64,000 bases of DNA from a virus: the IMG/VR virus record IMGVR_UViG_3300050821_017570, positions 96,001 through 160,000 of that record; one strand, written 5' to 3'. Made by a program: the position numbers and the translations under genes. Positions 945-19,325 of this stretch are shown piece after piece; position 1 is the stretch's first letter; each line of letters begins with the position of its first letter. The notes under the pieces were generated by a model. The model was not told the DNA's origin, ran no database searches, and saw nothing but the letters and a program-made list of their open reading frames with translations.

Positions 945-1819
945 TAGGGTGCCAGATCGGTCATCTGTTCCAGGAGCTTATCCACCACCTGTTTGACCTC
1001 CATGAGGCCGGCTTGTGCGTTCTCGAACGCGGCCTTGTAGTTGGCTTGTGCCTTATCGGAGTCGAACCCGATCTTACTGGCCTCGCCAATCACAATGAAA
1101 ACATCAGGTGCGATGCTCAACAGCTTTGTGCAGGTCGAATCGATCTGCTTGAGTGGCTTCAGCGGTGATTGGCTGAACTCCTTCTCCTGGTGCGCACCAA
1201 CCGATTTTGTTTTTCCATCATCGGGCTGGACTGGGGCCGCGACCCCAACGGCATTGTCAGCCGAACCAGTGTCTCCCACGTTATCTGATGGTTCGGCCGC
1301 CGGCGGAGTCGGCTTAACTGGTGCTGGTGCTCGGGCGGTCTGGATGGCTTCATCAGTAGCCTTTCGAACCGACTGTTTACGATGCTCCTGGATCGTTTCC
1401 TCCAAGGCTTTGATCGTGACAGCCTTACCATCATCACCGTAGAGCTTTTCGACCACCGCTGGACGAGTTTCCTCGTCAACCGAAGCCAGCAGCTTGAGGT
1501 GACCGATCAGGACACCCTTACTGACCATCTCGGGCAGATCTTCCTGTCGGTACATGAGATTGACGGACCGCGCACAGTAGAGGGTTGTGGCACCAAACGT
1601 CGCGCCAGGGATGCGAGCTGTCAACTCACTCGCCAACCGCTCAATGCCGGCTCGGGATGGCTTCTCCCCAGCCGCCTGGATGAATCGAATCACAATCGCA
1701 CCCAGCTCCCAGTAGTAGTTCAGGTGAGACAGCTGAGCAACACTGGTACAGCGGCAGGCTGCCTCTAGGCATTCGTTGTAGATAGCTTCAAAACTAGGCT
1801 GTTCGGCCGGAGTATTCAT
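944..1819 (-). CDS. DUF1016/YhcG N-terminal-like domain protein with P/A-rich linker
   Basis: NYYWELGAIV...GIERLASELTARIPGATFGATTLY resembles the DUF1016_N pattern; start moved to ATG 1819 (ATGA coupling). Confidence 0.6.
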   Translation of the reverse strand: MNTPAEQPSFEAIYNECLEAACRCTSVAQLSHLNYYWELGAIVIRFIQAAGEKPSRAGIERLASELTARIPGATFGATTLYCARSVNLMYRQEDLPEMVSKGVLIGHLKLLASVDEETRPAVVEKLYGDDGKAVTIKALEETIQEHRKQSVRKATDEAIQTARAPAPVKPTPPAAEPSDNVGDTGSADNAVGVAAPVQPDDGKTKSVGAHQEKEFSQSPLKPLKQIDSTCTKLLSIAPDVFIVIGEASKIGFDSDKAQANYKAAFENAQAGLMEVKQVVDKLLEQMTDLAP

Positions 1820-2307
1820 GTAGGCTCCTCTGAAGGTCCCCATCGGTTAGAGAAGAACTTCTCAAACGGCAGGACATTGAAAATGGCCTGGCTGGTAGAA
1901 ACGTGAAGAGAGCAGTCCTCCAGGGTGGTCAGATTGGTAGCCACCCATCGTCCTTGCCCATACACGTAGAATATCAAGCAACACGGCTCTGTTGACGTGC
2001 CGCGGAAATTAAGAAACGCTTCCGTAATGGGGTGGCTGACTGGTTTACGAAGCAAGTCAAAGAAGTTAAATCGAAACTCACGCGTCGATCCAACCCTAGC
2101 GGTAACTAGGCCTTCATCGTTAAACCAGTCCCAGCCAAACCCCTCTTGCAGCTCATGTTTCTGGTGGGCGACCTGACCAGCCGACCAACCTAACTGCTTA
2201 AGAACCGCTCCAACAGACGACTCTTCGAAATTTGTCAGCTTGTGGGTTTCGAGTTCCTTGGCAGCGTCAGATAACCCCAACTGCTTCATCACGTCATCAG
2301 GGTACAT
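1816..2307 (-). CDS. hypothetical protein
   Basis: 163-aa ORF tightly packed between neighbours. Confidence 0.75.
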   Translation of the reverse strand: MYPDDVMKQLGLSDAAKELETHKLTNFEESSVGAVLKQLGWSAGQVAHQKHELQEGFGWDWFNDEGLVTARVGSTREFRFNFFDLLRKPVSHPITEAFLNFRGTSTEPCCLIFYVYGQGRWVATNLTTLEDCSLHVSTSQAIFNVLPFEKFFSNRWGPSEEPT

Positions 2308-2309
2308 GG

Positions 2310-3575
2310 TTAGTCACCAAGCACGGTCTGGTCGGTCAGGTCCACTTCCTGGATGTTCGAATACTGAATGATATCAAGGAAGTTGGAGACCTTCTGTCGC
2401 ATCTCAGGGTTCTGCTCGATCGCACGTCCAAACGCAGTGAAGCTAGCTCCATCGAGCCCTAACGCCTCGCACTTGATATGGTTGGGGTCATTTTGGACAA
2501 AGTAGAGCGCGTCATCCAGACGGGCAATATCGTAGGCGAAATTACCGAACTTTTTGTCATACTTCATCTGCCAGAGCAGGTAACCAAGTGCACCTTCCCA
2601 GTCATACTTCATGATCTGGCGACGGGGTCCCTTCAGGGTCGGATCGTCCGGATGCGGGCTATCCACGTACTGCCAAATCAGATCGACCCAAAGCTTGCGG
2701 TGATCGGGTCCCAGGCAGGACATATTGGATTCGATGATGAGCGGATGCCCCGTGCAGGGCACACCCGGATGCGGCATCGCCTCGTGGGTGGCCTTTTCGA
2801 ATCCCGCACACTTGGTTACGCGCAAACTCAGACTGGCCTTGAAGTTAGCTGCCGCACCACCGGTTTCACGCTTCGGAGGCGGCCCATACCCGCCGGTCTG
2901 CTCGATCGCCTGCTTGAGGTGCCGAACATACCCAACCGAACAGGTCGTACCGTGAAGCTGCATAGCCTCCAGATACCGGGTAATCTGCGCGGCAGTGGTT
3001 GGGTAACCACGAGCCTGCGCCATACCTTCCTTCTCGATACGTTCCTGGTCACCCTCCGAGGCTTTACCGGTCAGCGAATCAATACTGACGAATGACGGAA
3101 TACGAGCGCCCTTATCGCGGTATCCGATTCGTCGGGCCAGCTGGATAGCTGCCGTGGCGATTGACTGCCACTCTTCAACTGAAGCCGACTCCTTGAAGAT
3201 GAGTAGCTTTGACTGTGCCTCGGTGAGGCGCCACCACGTCATGGCACTCAACATGGAAGCCGAACTCTTACTCTCATTGTCGATCGCCGTACCGAGCCCA
3301 CCCGCAAGGATATACCAGGTCAGGATCTCAATCATGAGGGTCGACTTGAAAGACTTAGGTTCCCCTGACACGCTTAGATAGCGCTGACATGGGAATACGC
3401 TGCAACCACCGATCACCCACTGAAAGGCCAGACTAGGGATCGGAATCCCCCAGGTGTGCTCGGCATGATCACCCATTGAGTAGGCTTTCGTGGAAGTCGC
3501 CGCCTGGTTAATCGCATCGATAGCAATCTGGGCGAGCTGATCGGGCGCGAAGTCATCCTTGGCTTTTTTAGCCAT
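2310..3575 (-). CDS. uvsX: RecA/UvsX-like recombinase
   Basis: Walker A variant SGEPKSFKSTL as in T4 UvsX (GPSKSFKS); IDNE, SIDSL Walker B, HLKQ, TGG loop. Confidence 0.85.
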   Translation of the reverse strand: MAKKAKDDFAPDQLAQIAIDAINQAATSTKAYSMGDHAEHTWGIPIPSLAFQWVIGGCSVFPCQRYLSVSGEPKSFKSTLMIEILTWYILAGGLGTAIDNESKSSASMLSAMTWWRLTEAQSKLLIFKESASVEEWQSIATAAIQLARRIGYRDKGARIPSFVSIDSLTGKASEGDQERIEKEGMAQARGYPTTAAQITRYLEAMQLHGTTCSVGYVRHLKQAIEQTGGYGPPPKRETGGAAANFKASLSLRVTKCAGFEKATHEAMPHPGVPCTGHPLIIESNMSCLGPDHRKLWVDLIWQYVDSPHPDDPTLKGPRRQIMKYDWEGALGYLLWQMKYDKKFGNFAYDIARLDDALYFVQNDPNHIKCEALGLDGASFTAFGRAIEQNPEMRQKVSNFLDIIQYSNIQEVDLTDQTVLGD

Positions 3576-4985: not shown

Positions 4986-7900
4986 CTAAGCTGCCTTAGG
5001 CTTCTCACCTAACCGGTTGGGATAGACGCTAATGTCGACACCGAGTCGTCTTCCATTCGTTTTTGGAATGGGGTTCATGGTGCGCATACAGAGTTCGATA
5101 ACGGTCTTCATTTCATTGACTGACTCGTTAGGGACCTCGAAATAGAAAGCATCATGGACCGGTAGGATGATTCGGAATCCGAGTCGTCGACCCGTCTCGG
5201 TATGATACCGGAAGTTGTAGAGATTGATGCCAGCCTGAGCGAGCAAATCAGCTACCGCCCCCTGAATACCACAATTCATCGCTTGTCGAGCGATCGCAGC
5301 CTGAACAGAACGCGACGCCGTAGCGGCGCCTGGAAAGTAACGACACCGATCAAACACCGTCTCCAGGTACTCGTTCTCGACGGCCGTCTTAGCAGCTGCC
5401 TTCAAAAACGCCCAAACCTGAGGGAATGTACTGGCGATGTAATCGATGATCGCTTGGCCTTGTGCCTGGGTAAACCCCGGAACCACCTTGCCGATCTCAC
5501 GGGCCAGCGCACCAGCGGAACGCCCGTACAGGAGTCCAAACAACACAGCCTTAGCAGCCGTGCGTAATGCGTCATAGAGACTCTTAACCCGTTTGGTCCA
5601 TGCTTTGTATGGCTTCGAATCGCCGGCCTCAATTGCGGCCAACGCGGCTGGAAGATCTGCTCCCTCTGGGAGCTGAAAGCATCGAACAGCGGTTTCAGAG
5701 TGAATGTCACGCTCTTGATCGATCGCCTTGGACATCGCTACGTCACCAGAGACGAAGGCCACAATACATAGCTCGGCGGTCTTAAAGTCCGCCTCCATCA
5801 GCGTGTAGCCAGGTGCAGGAACGTAGCACGACTTAAATGGTCGGAGCTTAATCCGATCTTCCTTTGGGATCAGATCGGCAGGAGCCTTCACATCATCGGT
5901 ACGACGCAGGTATTCCTTCGGAGTCATCCCATCGAATTTGTAGTCAACCAGTACTTCCAACGCAGCCGTCTCCTGCTTGTTGGGATTGGTCTGTAGGTTG
6001 GCCTTGAAGCTACGATACCGCCCCGTCTCACTCGTCTGGTGGAAGTGGGTACGAACCCTACCGTCACGGCAGATATTGTTCTGGAACGACTTACCGTCCT
6101 CCTTCTCACCATAACGATTTTGCTTTGGTAGCACCAGGTAGGTCGATAGGAACTTGCTGAGTACGGACAGATGCTTGAGCATCTTCAGTACCTGCAGGTC
6201 AGCTTTCTCTTCGTCTGTCTTAGCAGCCCCCAAAGACTGCGTATACATGAGGTCAAGAATGTTCGCCTTCGTGCAAGGCGAATTCTGCAACTCCTTATGA
6301 TCGGCTACAATATCGGTCCATAACTTCGGATACTTGTCCGTATTGCAGTAGGGGGTAAACGATAACCCCCTAACACCTTCGGGCAGCGGCTTTTTGTCTT
6401 TGAACTTCGAGGTGCTGAACAGCAAAGACGTGCGCTGCTTACTAGACGATGGGTTAAATTTAGGCCACCCGATGGTATCGCGAAATCGCTCCAGTAGTGC
6501 CTCATAGACCGGCTGATACTGATAATGAATTTCACGTAGCCGCGCCTGATCCACCAAAATGCCCTGGCGTTCCACATCCAGCAGATGGAGTGCGGTGGGC
6601 ATGACAAGATTCCAGAACAGCGACTTGAGCTTAGGATGCTGGTCCAGTTCAGCCTCAACCTTGCGAGCTGCCTGCCAGGTCGCATCGGCATCTCGTAACG
6701 CGTATGGAAACAGAATCTCATCTGGAACGTAGCCATAACCGTGAGCCAGTAGAGAAGGACGCCCCGAGAGTTTGATCCCATCGGGTCGAACCGCGCTTCC
6801 GGTTGAAAGCCACTCTTCGAGTTCCTTCCAGTAGTTACCGAACTCTGGTACGTAGGCACGAATCAAGTGGTCGAGACCATCTGATTCATCCCCGGTAGAA
6901 CCGTGTAGGAGATTGCGAGCCAATAGGGTACAGAATCCGGTCGCAAGCTTGTGATCCAGATTGATCTCAAACTCACCAGCCGCCTTGATATCACCGCGCA
7001 ACTGATGGCCTTCAAGCCGCCGTGCCGGATGATCCATAATCTGGCGCAACAGCTCTCGAATCTGGTTCAACTGCTCTGGCGTGTGGATCTCGGTGCAACC
7101 CACACCCCTGATGACTACCAGAGCCGCTTTACCAGCTGCCCATGAAAACTGTATCGTTCGAAGCAACCCATCCTCTTCACGTCCCGTTAGGTTGCCGTAC
7201 TCGGTATCGAAGCTAACAAGGGTTGCCGAGTCAGCCTCCATGTCGTCACGGAGCTTTACGACCTCCTCAACCGTCTGACAGACACGGTAGTCGGGCTTCA
7301 TGAGACAGGCACCCGACACATAGTTACGTAACCCTACATCGACCGCGCGGGCTAGTTCGGATCGGAATACATCGATGCCTGCGGTTGAGCCGACAAACAC
7401 AAATGGATTACAGGTCGGAACAACCGGAATGCCTTTCCACTCATGTACGGATCCACGATACGTGTCAAGCTTCGCCGTCTTGCCATACAGGACCTTCAAG
7501 GCGTCTGACCCAAGCGTCACGATAACCCGTGGCTGGCAGGCTTCGCAGTCCATCCGTGCGTAAACCGCACAGGCTTTTTTATGTGACTCTAAGGGTTTCA
7601 TATCCTTGGTCGGCATAGGAAACCGAACCGCATGGGTCACCAACATGTCGGCTAACGGTAATCCGGCCTCCACCGCCTGCTCGGCCAATAGGTGGCCCCA
7701 GAAATTACGAAGGCAGGTCCGGAACTCGATATCGCTTTGTGAGCAGATCGGCCCAATCAGCATGTAGTCGGCTATCCGCCATCCGAATCCAGTTCCACCC
7801 ATGTAGCCGGGTGTCTGCACGGGAAGGTGCCATCGATAATCAATCCTCGCTTCCGGTAGTGCGACCAGGTCCTTACAGACCTCATAACAGAACCACGGAA

Positions 7901-12636: not shown

Positions 12637-12750
12637 GAGGACCTTAGGTCGGGATAGCTACGATAACAGAGTTCCATCAATCTCAATAGGTTGGTTATGT
12701 CCCCCATCCGGTTGTAGAACCGGGGCCATGACCCACTAGTGATTGATACC

Positions 12751-12793
12751 AAAAGAAAAAGATCCCCCGGCGCCTTTCGGCCACCGGGGGATC
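12751..12793 (-). terminator. intrinsic terminator closing the ubiquitin-like operon
   Basis: GATCCCCCGG-TGGCCGAAAGGCG-CCGGGGGATC stem followed by TTTTTCTTTT. Confidence 0.85.
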
Positions 12794-12846
12794 TTCCTCA
12801 CCCACAACCGGCATTCCGCCGGAGTGAGTTCATCTGATGCTGAAAC

Positions 12847-12866: not shown

Positions 12867-13487
12867 TCACTTGTTGCCCTTGATGGGCTCGGTGAGGAGG
12901 ACGAGATCGCCATCCTGGACTTCGGTATCCAGGGTGGCGGGATCGCCGCCGATCTTCAGATCGTAGTTGCCCTTCACGAGACCCGCGTGGCGGAGAACGT
13001 CCGCGACGGTGTCACCGTGGTCGACAGCCACCGGGGTCAGGCGACCCGGGAACTTGCCGACCTGAACGGAGATCTGGTTGCCCTTGATGGGCTCGGTCAG
13101 CAGAACCAGGTCACCATCCTGAACCTCGGTCTCCAGAGTCGCGGGATCGCCGCCGATCTTGAGATCGTAGTTGCCCTTCACGAGACCCGCATGCCGCAGC
13201 ACGTCGGCCACGGTATCGCCGTGATCGACCGCGACAGGCGTCAGACGACCAGGGAACTTGCCGACCTGGACGCTGATCTGGTTGCCCTTGATGGGCTCGG
13301 TGAGGAGGACGAGATCGCCGTCGAAGACCTCGGTGTCGAGGTTGGCGCTCTCGCCACCGATCTTGAGGTCGTAGTTGCCCTTCACGAGACCCGCGTGGCG
13401 GAGCGCATCCGCGACGGTCGAGCCTGCATCGCAGGTGATGGGGGTGAGACGACCGGGGAACTTGCCAACCTGAACGGAGATAGCCAT
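12867..13487 (-). CDS. tri-ubiquitin-like (beta-grasp) polyprotein precursor: 3 x 68-aa units ending IKG, plus an NK cap
   Basis: Three tandem units ISVQVGKFPGRL...TVAD.LRHAG...YDLKIGG...L.TEV.DGDLVLLTEPIKG (ThiS/MoaD/Ub-like pattern); real start ATG 13487 with AAGGAAG SD; next to E1, JAB and E2 genes. Confidence 0.85.
   Translation of the reverse strand: MAISVQVGKFPGRLTPITCDAGSTVADALRHAGLVKGNYDLKIGGESANLDTEVFDGDLVLLTEPIKGNQISVQVGKFPGRLTPVAVDHGDTVADVLRHAGLVKGNYDLKIGGDPATLETEVQDGDLVLLTEPIKGNQISVQVGKFPGRLTPVAVDHGDTVADVLRHAGLVKGNYDLKIGGDPATLDTEVQDGDLVLLTEPIKGNK
12870..13481 (-). repeat. three tandem 204-nt repeats encoding the Ubl units
   Basis: Period 204 nt; units differ mostly at synonymous positions. 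Confidence 0.95.
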
Positions 13488-13560
13488 GTGAAACTTCCTT
13501 GAGAGAGGTGGGTTAGAGGCCCACCTTTGTAACAAACAACATTTTCAGTACAAGCGCAAA

Positions 13561-14274
13561 CTAACCGGCAGCCTTCTTGAGGAAGGTCCGGGGCAACAGG
13601 ACAGTAAAGGCGGGGCTCATAGCGACAAGGACGTCCCACTGTGGGGCTTCCTTCCCTTCCTTACCCTGTTTGTGGGCCCACCACTGGATCAGCGTCCACG
13701 TGGCGTATCCTGCGAGAATCTCGGCAGTCGGACCTACCGTGATCTGCGTCCCACAGGCGCTTACCGTCGCCTGCTCATCCCCATACAGATACCCTTCCCA
13801 GAACTTGACCTGTTCGGGGCTATTGGGATCGATCGCAAAGACACGCGCCTGGTCAGCCCCCATGCGGGTCTCGATCATCAGCTTCAAGTAGGGATGGTAC
13901 TTGATACTGGCGTCCCAAATCTCCTTCCGACTCTTCATCGTGTCGGTCAGGAGGAAAACGAACGATCCGAGATCCTGCTGGCCCTCGTAGGCCTCATTGT
14001 GCGCAGTGATCTCGATCTCGGTCTGGCGCCGGATCATCTCCTTCAACGCCTCGACCTTCGGCTTTCCAATGTCATCGATGCCAAACGCCTGATTTGGCAC
14101 ATTGTGGCCTTCGATCTTGTCGAAGTCCCAACAGTGAAGATTCTTGATGCCGAGCTTGGCCAGCGAAATGGCCACTCGGGAACCGGTTGCACCGCATCCG
14201 ATGATGTCGACCCGCTGCTCGCCAAAAGCATACGGGTCGAACACCTCCAGATGCCGCATCGTATTAAGCGGCAT
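13561..14274 (-). CDS. E1-like (ThiF/MoeB family) adenylating enzyme
   Basis: IIGCGATGS nucleotide loop, DFDKIEGHNVPNQ, GKPKV, TD...R, ETRMG; candidate catalytic Cys174 in SACG; no CxxC Zn pairs. Confidence 0.92.
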   Translation of the reverse strand: MPLNTMRHLEVFDPYAFGEQRVDIIGCGATGSRVAISLAKLGIKNLHCWDFDKIEGHNVPNQAFGIDDIGKPKVEALKEMIRRQTEIEITAHNEAYEGQQDLGSFVFLLTDTMKSRKEIWDASIKYHPYLKLMIETRMGADQARVFAIDPNSPEQVKFWEGYLYGDEQATVSACGTQITVGPTAEILAGYATWTLIQWWAHKQGKEGKEAPQWDVLVAMSPAFTVLLPRTFLKKAAG

Positions 14275-14287
14275 ACCTATCCTGGCT

Positions 14288-15349
14288 CTACGGGCCGCGC
14301 GGGGCCTGTGGGTCTGGCTTCACTTGAGTCGACGGAGCTTGCTCCGCCCCTTCAAGAATCTCCGCAACGGCAGGGTAAGTGTCCTTTGCGTTGAATCGTG
14401 AGGAGACTGAGGTTTCGGCAGGAGGGCTGTGGTGCGGGGCTCCGCAAAAGTGCTCCTCGTGATCGAGGACCTCCTGACCCGATGGTGCCACCGGAGTCGA
14501 AGAGGTTGTGCCTTCCAGCTCGATCACCGCAACCGTGTCGCCCAGCGACGGCAGATGGGTGAACGGCACCATCTTGGCACGCACGCCACAGCCCTTCTTC
14601 TTGTACGGGCAGGTCAGCATGCTGAACATCTGGCGACGCTCAACCGTGACCTCCTGCCGACAAGCCGAACACCAAGCCGGCACTTCCTGTTCGTCCCAAG
14701 GCTTATACGGACGATATCCCTTGAAGTCGTCACCATCGCTCCAGCTGGTACGTCTCCAGTCCTGGCTCGCACCGCTCCAGGTGAGAGGCTTGACCTTGAG
14801 GTCAAACTCCGCCTGAAGGGCCGCCCGACGCGGCGAATCCGACGATGCCTCGACCGCCCACTCGATGTCGAGAACCGCATAATGCTTGTCGAAGTCGAAC
14901 AGATCGAGCTTCAACTCACCACGCTTGTTGCCGATCGCTCGGATCAGGAACGGAGCCTCGTTGCGCTTCCAGAGCCCGACCTGAGTGTCGTCCTGACCAG
15001 ACGGTTCCACCCCCATCGTGTGATGGGAATGGAACCAGTAGTAGAGACGATTCACGTCGGCCTTGATGACCGGATTGGCATTCCGGCCCAGCTCGACCGC
15101 GAGCTTACCCAGCCCCTCGGTCGAGATCTCGTTGGTACCGGCGTTGACCTGCTGGTCGATCAGATAGACCCGCTGGACCACAAGGGTCCCATCGGCCAGC
15201 TTCTCCACCGCACCGAGCATCCCCACCTCAACGGTGGCGATGTCGGTGATGATGGCCTGATCCTCAAGAGCCTGGCGGCTGATGATGATCTTGGGAACCT
15301 GAGCCTGAATGTCATTCTTGAACTTGTGCCCAACAAACGTCATGATCAA
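14288..15349 (-). CDS. JAB/MPN (JAMM) metalloprotease, deubiquitinase-like, with C-terminal Cys cluster
   Basis: E41...H107-S-H109-x7-S117-x2-D120, an exact JAMM signature; CSAC...CPYKKKGC downstream. Confidence 0.9.
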   Translation of the reverse strand: MIMTFVGHKFKNDIQAQVPKIIISRQALEDQAIITDIATVEVGMLGAVEKLADGTLVVQRVYLIDQQVNAGTNEISTEGLGKLAVELGRNANPVIKADVNRLYYWFHSHHTMGVEPSGQDDTQVGLWKRNEAPFLIRAIGNKRGELKLDLFDFDKHYAVLDIEWAVEASSDSPRRAALQAEFDLKVKPLTWSGASQDWRRTSWSDGDDFKGYRPYKPWDEQEVPAWCSACRQEVTVERRQMFSMLTCPYKKKGCGVRAKMVPFTHLPSLGDTVAVIELEGTTSSTPVAPSGQEVLDHEEHFCGAPHHSPPAETSVSSRFNAKDTYPAVAEILEGAEQAPSTQVKPDPQAPRGP

Positions 15350-17043
15350 TCCTTCTTCGCACCAGCGGCCTTCGCCGCCGGCTTGGCCATCTCGGCCAGC
15401 TCAGGGTATTCGGCCAGCTCGGCAGCATAGCGAGCCTTCTTCTCGATCGCCAGGGCAGCGCGCTGCGCCTTGACGACCTCCGGATCGGCCACCGGCCACC
15501 GGTTCACCTTGCTACCCGCGCTGTCGTCCACATTGACCGACTGCAGGTACAGGATGACGGCCACGATGGCCGCCTTGTACTCGAACGACGCCACCAGCTC
15601 GGTGACGGTCGACCCGATGTTGCCCCAGCAGGGCTTACCGCTGGAGAACACGTGCGGAGCCTGCATGCCCGTCTCCTGGGCATCGACGGTCTTGCCGATC
15701 GCGAACATCTTCACATCACCATTGGTGGTGTTGATGTTGATGCGCATGCACCCCACGGCATGGAGCTTGTTGACCCGAGGATCCGTCACATAGAGCGGAT
15801 CGGTCTCGACGGTCAGCACGTCGCCCTTGAAGGTGACGTTCGCCACATGCGCCAGCTCACGCAGAGCAACGAACTCCTTGGTCAGCTTGGCGGTCTGCTG
15901 ATCGGTCGTCAGGCCACGGGCCTCGGCGATCGCCTGTAGATGCTCGATATTGCGGGTCGACTCGATGATCTGACGCTTCGCCGCTGCGAGCGCCTCCTCT
16001 TCCTTCTTGACGTTCTCGACCGCGTTCTTGCGCTCGATCTCGAATCGCTTCATCGACACCGCGACATACTTCTCGCAGAGGTCGCGATAGTTGGGCGGGC
16101 GATACCCACGCGTCATGATCTTGACCGCTTCGGTCAGATAGGTCTTGAGCAGCGTGAGGGTCTTCCCATCGTTCACCGCATGGACGGCATCGAAGGTGAT
16201 GTAGAGGTTGTTGTCGTTGAAATAGCCAACCTCATCACCCTCGGCCGACATGATCTTGCCACCCTGCTCCCACGGCACGAAGTGGCCGGGCGGACGCTCG
16301 GTAACCTGATGCCCCCACATGGTCTCGGGCACCACGAAACGGGAATCCGGGCCACCCGCATCGGGCGCCGACCAGATGAACACGTTGAACGTGTCACCGG
16401 CGATCGGAGCCTGCGCGCGGCCGTGCGGGATGTAGACGTCGATGTTGCGCTTCACGTAAGCGCCCAGGATGTCCTTGAACGCCTTCAGAACCGAGTCACG
16501 GAAGCCCGCATCGGTTGCGATCGTATAGTCGGTCCAACCCTTCGGGGTCACGACGACGGCCGAAGCCTCCATCGTGCCGATCCGCACCTTGTGGGCGGTC
16601 GCCGGCTTGGCCGGAGCGGCCGTGGCAGCCGTGGCAGCCACGGCGGGAGCCGCTGCCGCAGGAGCAGCCGCCTGAGGTGCCGCAGGGGCGGCCTCAGGAG
16701 CTGCGGGCGCGGGAGCCGCTGGGGCAGCCGGGGCCGGAGCGGCACCGGCCGTGATGGCGGTCAGCTCGATCGCATTGATCGAACTGTGCTGCTGGGCACC
16801 GATGACCCAGCCGGCGCGAGCCAGACGGTCGAGACCTTCACGCGTCACGAGGAAGCACTGCTGACCGTCAACGTTCATGCCGTTGGGGGTCATGTTGTAG
16901 GCACCGACGTTGGCCAGGTCTTGCGCCGACACCACATCGGTCCGAATGGCGAAACTGACATCGACGACCGTCGGAACCGCCTCAGGAGTGACTCCCTCGG
17001 GGATCGTGACGGTGGCCGGACGAGGACGAGAAGTACGAGCCAT
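15346..17043 (-). CDS. multidomain protein with C-terminal prokaryotic E2 (Ub-conjugating)-like domain
   Basis: APHVFSSGKPCWGN matches the prokaryotic E2 (H)PH-x-Cys-x-G pattern; preceded by coiled coil and A/P linker; start ATG 17043 has AAGGA SD. Confidence 0.78.
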   Translation of the reverse strand: MARTSRPRPATVTIPEGVTPEAVPTVVDVSFAIRTDVVSAQDLANVGAYNMTPNGMNVDGQQCFLVTREGLDRLARAGWVIGAQQHSSINAIELTAITAGAAPAPAAPAAPAPAAPEAAPAAPQAAAPAAAAPAVAATAATAAPAKPATAHKVRIGTMEASAVVVTPKGWTDYTIATDAGFRDSVLKAFKDILGAYVKRNIDVYIPHGRAQAPIAGDTFNVFIWSAPDAGGPDSRFVVPETMWGHQVTERPPGHFVPWEQGGKIMSAEGDEVGYFNDNNLYITFDAVHAVNDGKTLTLLKTYLTEAVKIMTRGYRPPNYRDLCEKYVAVSMKRFEIERKNAVENVKKEEEALAAAKRQIIESTRNIEHLQAIAEARGLTTDQQTAKLTKEFVALRELAHVANVTFKGDVLTVETDPLYVTDPRVNKLHAVGCMRININTTNGDVKMFAIGKTVDAQETGMQAPHVFSSGKPCWGNIGSTVTELVASFEYKAAIVAVILYLQSVNVDDSAGSKVNRWPVADPEVVKAQRAALAIEKKARYAAELAEYPELAEMAKPAAKAAGAKKD

Positions 17044-17066
17044 TTGTATCCTTTGAAACGACCAAG

Positions 17067-19325
17067 TCACGCCTCACCGACGTGAATCACATGGTCAAGA
17101 AAACCTTTGAGTGACGCATCATGTGTGACAATCAGAATCTGTCTGCCCTTGGCTTGCGAAATCTCGCGTAACCTCAGGAGCAGGTTCTGAAGATGGACGA
17201 TGTTTGCCTCGTCCAGATAAGCCGACGGTTCATCAAGAACCAGCAGGCCCATGTTCCGGGCAAACGTATCGGCCATCGCTAGCCTGAACGCAACCGACGC
17301 AATGATCTTCTCACCTCCGGATAGGCGAGATGCGTCTACCTGAACACCCTTCTTCTCTCCACTGATGAAGAGAATACGGAACGCCATATCGGCGTCTAAC
17401 CACATTCGAAACGGAGATTCGAGAAGTAGCAAATACTGCTCGATATGGTTGTTGAGAATCGCAGAGTATTCACGCATCGCCAGGGCTGGATACCCAGATA
17501 CATGCATAGCCTCTCTGACCTGTCGAACGACTGCGACCCACGCGTTATCGTCAGCCTCACGCTGAGACTGCTCAAGTAGGCGTCGCGCCTCACCTTCACG
17601 CTGTGTCGCTAGCCCGCTGGCGACACCAACTTTCAACGTCAGTTCCTGTAATGCGCGGCTGAGACCAGGATAAGCTTCCATCTGGCGCTTAGCCTCGGTC
17701 ACTTCCTCCATAGTTGGAATGTTGTCAATCTGACCTAGCTGATCGAGATACTCCTTTGCCTTACAAGCCGTCGCAGCCGCCTGGGTGATCCGCGTGACCA
17801 ACCCAGCGTAGCGCTCATTCGCTACCGCGACAGCCGTTTGAAGCGTTTGGAACTCCGTGACGATCGCTCGTAACTGAGTCATCAGGACGCTATCCGCCGG
17901 CTCGGTAGGCAGGCCTCGCATCTGACTGGTAATCGATTCGACATCACGACTCAGCAACTGGTGGGCGCGAGCCAGCTCGGTCAGTCGGGTCAACTCGGCC
18001 GTCTGGAGTCGCAGGTTCGTCTTGAGAACGTCGGCTTCACCTTTCAGCAACTTGCTCGTAATCTGATCGATCTGATTCAACTGGCCCTGTACGGTAGCAC
18101 GCTGCTCTTGCAGGACTGCTAATTCGGACTTCTTCCGCTGAACCATCTCTGGCCCGCCATGAACGGTCTGACCACACGTCGGACAGACCCCACTTCCAAG
18201 GTGCTGACACTCACTCGACAGTTGGCGCTGGCTATCCGATAGCCGTGCCAGCTCAACCTCCAGGGCTTCCTGACCTGGCATCTTCGGCCGCGCGGCTGGC
18301 GTCTTAACCATCCATTCGAGTGACTCCAACCGAGCGGTGTCGGCCTTGATCTGATCCGCTAGCGCGGTTTGATCTGCCTGGGAAAATGGTGCCAGCTGGG
18401 TCTTCTGAAGCTCAGCAAGCCGCTGACTCAGCTCAACCCATCGTTCCCATTGTGTGTGAGCCTTCTCCAGCGATTTGATCTGTTCGACCGCACTAATCGC
18501 AAGAGCCTGGCTAGCGTCACGCTGTGCTTGTTTGGCCACCAACGCTTGGTGGGCCTCATCTGCTTCCAGCCGAGCAGCCTCACACTCTTGCGTCATCCGC
18601 TCGTACTGCTGGGTCGCCTGGGCAACCGCAGCCGTATGTCGGATCGCTTCACTGGCCCGCTGAAGCGTCTGCTGGTGAACCGCCAGTCCCTCTAACGCGA
18701 CTTGCGTCCGTTGAAGGTCGGCTTCTGCCGCTACCAGTTCGGCTCTCGCCTTGGTGGTTGCAGCAACCGCCTCGGCCAGAATGTCTGTCAGGTTAGGCGT
18801 GACCTGGTAGAGATTCTGCTCAACCGTCAGGAGTCGATAGACCTGCTCGGTTCGATCGAGCCCAAAGCTAGCCTGGAACTCCTTGAGCCGGCTGGTTGGG
18901 CTGGCACACAAGATGGCCTCAATCTTGGTCTGCTGGATGAAAACATTGTCCAACAGGAGATCGATCGGAGCGCCAAACATGTCCTGGATAAACAGATCCA
19001 GTTCACCGGCCTTGTTGATACGGGTGCCTGGTCCGGTCAGAATCGACTTGGCCGGCAGATCACGATAGATGTGCCGGACGATCTGATACTCGGTACCGGC
19101 TTGATCGAACAGACCTCTGACCTCTGCGTCGGCCTGACCGTCGCGGATGTTGTCCTTGTTGTTGCCGCTGTTGACGCTTCGACCCGTGAACAACAGTCGG
19201 ATGGCGTCGCAAAGATTCGACTTGCCACTTCCGTTGGCACCCACGATACCGTTCAGGCCAGGTCGAAACTCGACCTCCAGACTTCGATGTTGGCAATAGT
19301 TCGTAAGCAGGAGTGATTTTAGCAC
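17067..19325 (-). CDS. sbcC: SbcC/Rad50 (gp46-like) SMC ATPase
   Basis: GANGSGKS Walker A, CPTCGQ zinc hook, long coiled coils, LSGGEK signature, LLVLDEP, IVTH. Confidence 0.95.
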   Translation of the reverse strand: MLKSLLLTNYCQHRSLEVEFRPGLNGIVGANGSGKSNLCDAIRLLFTGRSVNSGNNKDNIRDGQADAEVRGLFDQAGTEYQIVRHIYRDLPAKSILTGPGTRINKAGELDLFIQDMFGAPIDLLLDNVFIQQTKIEAILCASPTSRLKEFQASFGLDRTEQVYRLLTVEQNLYQVTPNLTDILAEAVAATTKARAELVAAEADLQRTQVALEGLAVHQQTLQRASEAIRHTAAVAQATQQYERMTQECEAARLEADEAHQALVAKQAQRDASQALAISAVEQIKSLEKAHTQWERWVELSQRLAELQKTQLAPFSQADQTALADQIKADTARLESLEWMVKTPAARPKMPGQEALEVELARLSDSQRQLSSECQHLGSGVCPTCGQTVHGGPEMVQRKKSELAVLQEQRATVQGQLNQIDQITSKLLKGEADVLKTNLRLQTAELTRLTELARAHQLLSRDVESITSQMRGLPTEPADSVLMTQLRAIVTEFQTLQTAVAVANERYAGLVTRITQAAATACKAKEYLDQLGQIDNIPTMEEVTEAKRQMEAYPGLSRALQELTLKVGVASGLATQREGEARRLLEQSQREADDNAWVAVVRQVREAMHVSGYPALAMREYSAILNNHIEQYLLLLESPFRMWLDADMAFRILFISGEKKGVQVDASRLSGGEKIIASVAFRLAMADTFARNMGLLVLDEPSAYLDEANIVHLQNLLLRLREISQAKGRQILIVTHDASLKGFLDHVIHVGEA

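Follow-up and report, generated by a model that had tools for sequence, protein, structure and literature searches.

The window analysed here is a 64,000-nucleotide stretch of viral DNA (positions 96,001 to 160,000 of IMG/VR record IMGVR_UViG_3300050821_017570). It carries a gene, P0001, whose product is made of three ubiquitin-like (Ubl) units joined head to tail, each with the same complete tail. In this large soil phage, the gene appears to be a viral equivalent of the polyubiquitin gene of eukaryotes that arose independently. P0001 is the last of four co-oriented genes, following those for an E2-like protein (P0004), a JAMM/JAB metalloprotease (P0003) and a ThiF-type E1 (P0002). The interpretation cautiously favoured here is that P0001 is a precursor which the JAB protease cuts into mono-Ubls.

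Polyubiquitin genes deliver many identical modifiers per translation and are regarded as eukaryotic, although some eukaryotic viruses carry them. No description of a phage poly-Ubl with tails repeated at every junction was found in the literature, of which coverage was incomplete, and novelty is therefore unproven.

Architecture and divergence of the repeat

The open reading frame (ORF) of P0001 lies on the minus strand, from an ATG at 13487 to a stop at 12867, and encodes 206 amino acids. Its parts are as follows.

12867–13487, minus strand: poly-Ubl gene P0001, 206 aa, three 68-aa predicted beta-grasp units, then NK and stop
13284–13487, minus strand: unit 1, residues 1–68, end ...EPIKG, 81% identical to units 2 and 3
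13080–13283, minus strand: unit 2, residues 69–136, start NQ, end ...EPIKG
12876–13079, minus strand: unit 3, residues 137–204, differing from unit 2 by 1 aa and 30 nt
12867–12875, minus strand: N205, K206 and stop; the cap is NK if the cut falls after Gly, K if it falls after Asn

Tandem Repeats Finder reported a single array at 12873–13481 (period 204, 3.0 copies, 81% matches, 0 indels, score 815), and each translated unit ends in LLTEPIKG. The 204-nt period, the three 68-aa units and the terminal NK of the original prediction are borne out by the array and the translation.

Units 2 and 3 had been described as one residue apart with changes concentrated at third codon positions. They differ by one residue (E/D) and by 30 nucleotides, 28 of which fall at codon position 3; the probability of at least 28 of 30 by chance is about 1e-13. 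Nei-Gojobori estimates for this pair gave a rate of synonymous change (dS) of 0.85, which is not near zero, a rate of nonsynonymous change (dN) of 0.020 and a dN/dS of 0.024. Unit 1, rightly described as the more divergent, differs from units 2 and 3 at 13 and 12 residues, with dN/dS values of 0.18 and 0.29. Purifying selection acts on the P0001 units, as had been proposed.

A VKGN motif (residues 35–38 of each unit, followed by Tyr), to which attention had been drawn for its resemblance to the junction, does occur in all three units, but relatives have S-x-x-G-[YF] at this place. Since VKGN is not conserved, a second cut site there was ruled out and the motif is treated as a coincidence.

Conservation of the tail motif at the junctions

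Neither tblastn with P0001 nor megablast with 11 kb of the region matched any of 50,697 GenBank phage records, and a word-based homologue search found two relatives only, both with two units, and none among shorter proteins. An exhaustive search with a hidden Markov model (HMM) profile built from seven units returned 1373 representatives (clustered at 50% identity) at E-values up to 1e-3, and 438 at E-values up to 1e-10. The proposed comparison of unit number could thereby be made: units ranged from one to four, with 17, 101, 26 and 7 proteins carrying 1, 2, 3 and 4 units among the best 150 of the 1373 representatives, a list ranked by summed score in which multi-unit proteins are over-represented.

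In these best 150, the glycine at position 68 is present in all aligned units, both internal (163/163) and terminal (117/117), and (K/R)GN is carried by 138 of the 174 internal units and by 93 of the 117 terminal ones. When internal units are grouped by their identity to sister units, the tail motif is kept in 14 of 18 at identities of at most 35%, in 24 of 29 at 35–50%, and in 126 of 126 above 50%. Because it is retained by units of at most 35% identity, the junction motif is not a leftover of recent duplication. For 205 of 307 units the closest neighbour is a sister from the same protein, and best identities have a median of 65% within proteins and 31% between them.

Single-unit orthologues end in the same tail (...KGN and a stop), and the extensions found beyond it are of many kinds: none, a single K, 1–4 residues, about 20 aa (P0007, P0016) or a fused domain of ~140 aa (P0104, P0112). 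The same tail followed by such varied extensions implies that the family has a processing step at the tail motif, and a protease that acts there would encounter an identical fold and tail wherever two units meet.

Synonymous divergence between units of nearly constant protein sequence recurs independently in relatives. The four units of P0007 differ at 5–10 of 65 residues with saturated synonymous sites (proportion of synonymous differences, pS, 0.67–0.77), and P0041 has two units with the same protein sequence whose DNA differs at 21 nucleotides.

Predicted fold and a model of the JAB-Ubl complex

The structure of P0001 was predicted with AlphaFold2 (AF2) from an alignment of 24 three-unit relatives, single-sequence prediction being unusable (predicted local distance difference test, pLDDT, 38.6). 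With the alignment, mean pLDDT was 92.4 and the predicted template modelling score (pTM) was 0.46. All three units are predicted to adopt the beta-grasp fold that had been anticipated, each with its beta-beta-alpha-beta...beta order, and dips in pLDDT are confined to residues 61–70, 131–140 and 201–206. High pLDDT together with this pTM and with dips at the junctions indicates three confident domains on flexible tails.

The best Foldseek matches in the PDB were linear tri- and tetra-ubiquitin (5h07_A, 7eb9_A, 7yui_A; E about 1e-10), and next came ISG15 and a polyubiquitin from Naegleria (5vix), with E about 1e-7 to 1e-8. In BFVD an uncharacterised Caudovirales protein ranked first, and giant-virus and pestivirus polyubiquitins came next; in the ESM Atlas the structural neighbours of P0001 were eukaryotic polyubiquitins and its feature neighbours were viral clusters. 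By sequence, the affinity lies elsewhere. The Pfam ThiS model PF02597 scored 30.4 bits (cut-off 22.5) as a sum over the repeats, with no single stretch significant, and NCBIfam NF005028 matched at E 4.5e-12, while PF00240 (ubiquitin) was absent from the Pfam matches at E-values up to 1. The SAMP2 chains 4hrs and 2l32 matched the family profile at E about 0.005 and are its nearest solved relatives by profile. The units are thus of the ThiS/SAMP2 type as judged from sequence, without the GG end.

A model of the JAB domain of P0003 with one Ubl unit and Zn reached an ipSAE (interaction prediction score from aligned errors) of 0.89, the best control reaching 0.01; 58 of 80 solved complexes and 2 of 110 mismatched pairs attain the mark set for this score. 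Three runs shared 100% of contacts, with a partner pLDDT of at least 93. In the model, Ubl residues 61–70 contact E39, H105, H107, S115 and D118 of the protease.

Precursor or uncleaved modifier

On the precursor reading, the JAB, encoded two genes upstream of P0001, would recognise a unit with its tail and cut each junction and the C-terminal cap, so that one P0001 translation product would yield three free modifiers. The ThiF-type E1 P0002 would then adenylate the freed Ubl C-terminus and hand the Ubl on to P0004, whose E2-like domain would receive it on its conserved Cys and link it to proteins of the phage or the host. Removal of the Ubl from these proteins could likewise be a task of the JAB. 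Junction cutting, activation, conjugation and the target are all steps that we infer.

Several observations weigh against cutting at every junction. The complex score may stem from likeness to the solved JAMM-Ub and JAMM-SAMP2 complexes, and the model would be expected to pass alike for a protease that cuts all junctions and for one that trims only the cap. The profile behind the junction statistics itself rewards KGN, and the ranking of its hits by summed score favours multi-unit proteins. Some members (P0006 and the di-Ubl protein of locus L020) have diverged units with positional orthology, and of 102 nearest neighbours found across proteins, 69 stand at the same position index, which hints at units that are specialised rather than interchangeable. 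The near-invariant Asn after the Gly would be unusual for a residue that is merely discarded. In addition, all characterised bacterial Ubl2 and Ubl3 proteins (BubA and BilA) act as intact multi-domain proteins and are cleaved only once, behind the conserved C-terminal Gly (PMC11601596, PMC11601603).

The behaviour of these bacterial proteins fits a different account, in which P0001 is a multi-domain modifier that stays uncleaved, as ISG15, FAT10, BilA and the Ubl3 of BubA do. The JAB would remove the cap only (and deconjugate), and the whole 22-kDa protein would either undergo activation through its last unit and be joined to targets, or self-assemble. Both the diverged, position-specific units of some relatives and the presence of ISG15 among the good structural matches are in keeping with it. 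Counting against it is the full tail motif that internal units retain at identities of at most 35%, as do the low pTM and floppy junctions of the AF2 model. Unit numbers from one to four and spacers from 0 to about 35 aa, all with orthologous enzymes, also count against it, and units 2 and 3, held identical but for one residue under a dS of 0.85, are hard to square with different roles for the domains. Lastly, a protease that cuts a terminal KGN-x would meet a like fold and tail at the junctions. Given the intact state of the characterised bacterial Ubls and the position-specific units, the precursor reading is held with no more than modest confidence, and the uncleaved modifier is a serious but distinctly less probable alternative.

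The bond that would be cut

The original prediction had the mature units ending in a single Gly. Each unit does end in ...EPIKG, but in two independent profile alignments residue 204 (G) of P0001 falls on position 75 of the ThiS model, which has 76 positions, and the KG of the family aligns with the KG of the SAMP2 C-terminus, ...IKGG. With G68 on the penultimate Gly of ThiS and SAMP2, N69 stands at the position of their terminal Gly. Most relatives among the best 150 of 1373 end exactly in ...KGN, a minority in ...KGA or ...KGG. A cut between G68 and N69, leaving a Gly end and the cap NK, and a cut between N69 and Q70, leaving an Asn end and the cap K, are about equally probable. Across the family, a Gly end would make the cap N or NK; with an Asn end the cap may be K alone, and most relatives may need no trimming. 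P0060, with its RGG-N-G junctions and RGG-R-G end, appears compatible with either site.

A ThiF-like enzyme, MccB, adenylates the C-terminal Asn of MccA peptides via a succinimide intermediate (PMC4010828). If the Ubl ends in Asn, the ThiF-type E1 would activate a C-terminal Asn, possibly via a succinimide, and Ubl conjugation of this sort would be new. To our knowledge, activation chemistry at a C-terminal Asn is so far known only from peptide adenylation of the MccB type. The more specific proposal, that a polyubiquitin-style precursor arose independently in phages with a mature modifier ending in Asn and G-N replacing G-G, is considered rather unlikely.

The four-gene cassette and its genome setting

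The virus record to which the window belongs is 187,139 bp long and estimated to be 95% complete. The cassette is flanked by an SbcC/Rad50-like gene and a superfamily 2 (SF2) helicase gene. The features surrounding P0001 are as follows.

12750–12799, minus strand: GC-rich hairpin followed by a U-run, 3′ of the P0001 stop, seen on folding
13494–13500, minus strand: Shine-Dalgarno-like AAGGAAG, 6 nt 5′ of the P0001 ATG, read from the sequence
13561–14274, minus strand: P0002, E1, single-domain ThiF-family adenylyltransferase, 237 aa, Cys174 conserved
14288–15343, minus strand: P0003, JAMM/JAB metalloprotease, E...H-S-H-x7-S-x2-D, assigned by motif and complex model
15346–17070, minus strand: P0004, 574 aa, with N-terminal domains, Ala/Pro linker, coiled coil and C-terminal E2-like domain
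15472–15888, minus strand: E2-like domain of P0004, residues 395–533, (H)PHVF-x2-G-x2-C

The E1 gene P0002 is located 73 nt upstream of P0001, and its product scored 74.3 bits on PF00899.

P0003 matched no Pfam, NCBIfam or PHROG model, and its identification as a JAMM/JAB protease follows from the motif E...H-S-H-x7-S-x2-D, invariant in 7 homologues, and from the complex model. Its ORF opens at TTG 15349 (353 aa), and ATG 15343 is the likelier start. Residues from about 225 to 353 (14288–14680, minus strand) form a C-terminal extension with C-x2-C...C-x6-C, which may be a zinc ribbon, and with a tail rich in Pro and Ser; this extension did not align to the L002 orthologue in a pairwise comparison.

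P0004, for which an alternative start is possible at ATG 17043, matched no sequence model in the libraries, and a PDB profile search with its family gave only coiled-coil noise. In its C-terminal domain P472, C481 and G483 are invariant in 6 homologues, and the spacing from H to C is as in the HPN...C of E2 enzymes. The ESM Atlas model of residues 395–533 resembles E2-CBASS and Prok-E2_D clusters (template modelling score, TM, 0.52–0.54). On these grounds the domain is treated as putatively E2-like. The Ala/Pro-rich, low-complexity linker behind the N-terminal domain (residues about 105–160; 16590–16760, minus strand) is lacking in orthologues and falls in the 600-base bin with the top regional GC content (0.68).

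Downstream of P0001, the full 122-nt stretch around the hairpin folds at -69.3 kcal/mol (z = -6.6). A simple terminator scan did not pick up the hairpin, which was seen on folding; together with the U-run it is likely an intrinsic terminator closing the four-gene cassette.

Identical contigs are present in soil metagenomes. From two DNA runs and two metatranscriptome runs on soil came contigs that match parts of P0001 exactly, with no variant joint; these contigs break within the repeat, those from RNA libraries are no proof of transcription, and no claim is made from the sequencing runs.

Related cassettes and variation within the family

A search for related loci with the E1 P0002 alone gave nothing, and one with the seven-unit profile gave one new locus only. 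The four-gene cassette nevertheless recurs in viral contigs, in which gene order and unit number vary. Orthologous E1, JAB and E2-like genes accompany one unit in L004 (E1 51% identical), L006 and L012, and two units in L002, L016 (in the order JAB, E1, Ubl) and L020. In L020, a 112-kb viral contig, two E2-like paralogues (1799–3517 and 5527–7299) flank the JAB, E1 and di-Ubl genes, and the E2-like protein of L005 has two conserved regions in swapped order.

The gene for P0007 (L015:3400–4266) has a UDG (uracil-DNA glycosylase) gene on one side and a Rad52-like gene on the other, and further downstream come radical-SAM and AAA genes. This 8.6-kb L015 contig has no gene for an E1, a JAB or an E2-like protein, which shows that the Ubl gene can sit apart from its enzymes.

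The proteins themselves vary in other respects. P0027 (319 aa) has three units with repeated spacers of about 35 aa between them, and the four units of P0060 (293 aa) carry RGG tails like that of ubiquitin, with N-G behind them (RGGNG), the protein ending in RGGRG. In P0104, P0112 and about a dozen others (261–317 aa), two units and their KGN are followed by a C-terminal region of ~140 aa that has a Cys-rich HECxC motif, a coiled coil and no Pfam match; this fusion subfamily recalls ubiquitin fusion proteins or BubAB. Two distant cassettes, whose E1 proteins are about 30% identical, contain weak Ubl-like ORFs (L009:2518–2898, L010:2574–2816) ending in ...K-x-D-N-A, which, going by these two sequences, may be another tail type.

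Among cultured and reference phages, P0002-like E1 genes occur in Xanthomonas phage PhiXhv-12 (L017), Flavobacterium phage FpV4 (L018) and the crAss-like phage cr111_1 (L019). All are annotated as "thiamine biosynthesis protein", probably mistakenly, and lie in a replication module, beside genes such as primase, UDG, exonuclease or topoisomerase. A weak JAB match stands beside the E1 gene in FpV4, and a metalloprotease is annotated beside it in cr111_1. The family HMMs detected no KGN-type Ubl within 5 kb in PhiXhv-12, FpV4 or cr111_1. A 70-aa ORF after the PhiXhv-12 E1 gene was considered as a Ubl and rejected, its tail ending in neither Gly nor Asn.

Gene neighbourhoods of this kind also bear on whether P0001 could be a sulfur carrier like ThiS, MoaD or TtuB, with the E1 adenylating a C-terminus that then becomes a thiocarboxylate and supplies sulfur for a thio-modified nucleotide or cofactor of the phage, and with the JAB serving only for maturation. 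The cassette, or E1 with JAB, is found among SbcC, helicase, UDG and primase genes in several phages, the E1 is a minimal single-domain ThiF protein, and the best sequence matches are to the ThiS, SAMP2 and ThiF families, all of which would suit such a role. Against this, Pfam and NCBIfam scans recognised no rhodanese, cysteine desulfurase or sulfur-insertion enzyme in the cassette, and ThiS and SAMP2 end in GG where the P0001 family ends in GN. Moreover, the core of the cassette includes a conserved E2-like protein whose Cys is invariant, and a sulfur relay needs none. A sulfur carrier is accordingly held to be improbable.

The linkage of the Ubl gene to its own E1, E2-like and JAB genes, which is tight across varied gene orders, is likewise difficult to reconcile with a non-covalent scaffold or decoy, that is, a multivalent tri-Ubl binder whose tail is never activated and which might, for example, titrate a host Ubl-based defence. 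Beta-grasp arrays can be adaptors, and bacterial Ubl defence systems against phages exist; even so, with the C-terminal tail motif conserved in every aligned unit, this idea is given very little credence.

Comparison with known systems

P0001 resembles eukaryotic UBB, UBC and yeast UBI4 in its spacer-free, head-to-tail beta-grasp units, each with a full tail, in the extra residue or residues at the terminus, and in units that are identical or nearly so in protein while their DNA diverges synonymously. It differs from them in its 68-aa units, its K-G-N rather than R-G-G tail and a unit 1 that is only 81% identical to the others, as well as in being carried by a phage, in its presumed processing by a co-encoded JAMM protease and in not matching PF00240.

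Among prokaryotic systems, "polyUbl" proteins with two to three repeats were described in 6E operons and called reminiscent of polyubiquitin (Iyer 2006; PMC1779556). In Bub, the former 6E, BubCD cleaves once, after the conserved Gly229; in the E. coli Ubl3 structure domains 1 and 2 are tightly packed, and Ubl3 proteins form dimers, those of Bil and Bub also forming Ca-dependent filaments (PMC11601596, PMC11601603). Like Bub and Bil, the present system has tandem beta-grasp domains (1–3 in Bub and Bil) encoded with E1, E2-like and JAB or peptidase genes. Unlike them, it has the tail motif at every P0001 junction, and its cassette hosts are phages. Bub is marked by an E1 fused to a peptidase and by an inactive E2/RWD partner, whereas here the JAB and E2-like proteins have separate genes and the E1 is a 237-aa single domain; the Bil E1 is multi-domain, with inactive and active adenylation domains and a Cys domain (PMC11601596), and P0002 has one ThiF domain. 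In Pfam, Multiubiq (PF14452) had no match in P0001, and none of the Bil models matched in NCBIfam or PADLOC scans.

The archaeal SAMP2/UbaA/HvJAMM1 sampylation system shares the ThiF-type E1 and the JAMM protease, with a tail of ...I-K-G-G where that of P0001 is ...I-K-G-N. SAMP2 has one unit only, which ends in GG, is made mature and is conjugated without an E2, whereas the present family has 1–4 units, a GN end and an E2-like protein.

A link to PRTRC, which the original prediction had raised, did not hold up. The component types are the same (ThiF, JAB, Prok-E2_D, Prok_Ub), and in structure the E2-like domain comes closest to the models of Prok-E2_D and E2-CBASS. However, PRTRC_ThiF (TIGR03736) scored 29.3 bits on P0002 against a cut-off of 144.75, no sequence match to PRTRC protein C or Prok_Ub was found in Pfam or NCBIfam, and Prok-E2_D (PF14460) had none in the genome at E-values up to 10; membership of PRTRC was ruled out on this basis.

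As in the MccB/MccA pair, a ThiF-family enzyme is here associated with a ribosomal product for which an Asn end can be considered, most P0001 relatives ending in ...G-N. MccA, in contrast, comprises peptides of 7–56 aa that are not beta-grasp proteins, and the present cassette has E2-like and JAB genes. No MccB model was among the NCBIfam matches of P0002.

Significance for phage biology

The P0001 family, with its 1373 representatives, is large, uncharacterised and apparently viral. It stands out for the complete tail in every unit, for units kept the same in protein at saturated synonymous divergence, and for a compact E1, E2-like and JAMM enzyme set of its own. Should cutting occur at the junctions, P0001 would represent a convergent phage polyubiquitin and the cassette a minimal, easily reconstituted Ubl system. 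Its position in a replication and recombination module raises the question of which targets a phage would tag during infection, and its tail that of whether an Asn-terminated Ubl can be activated.

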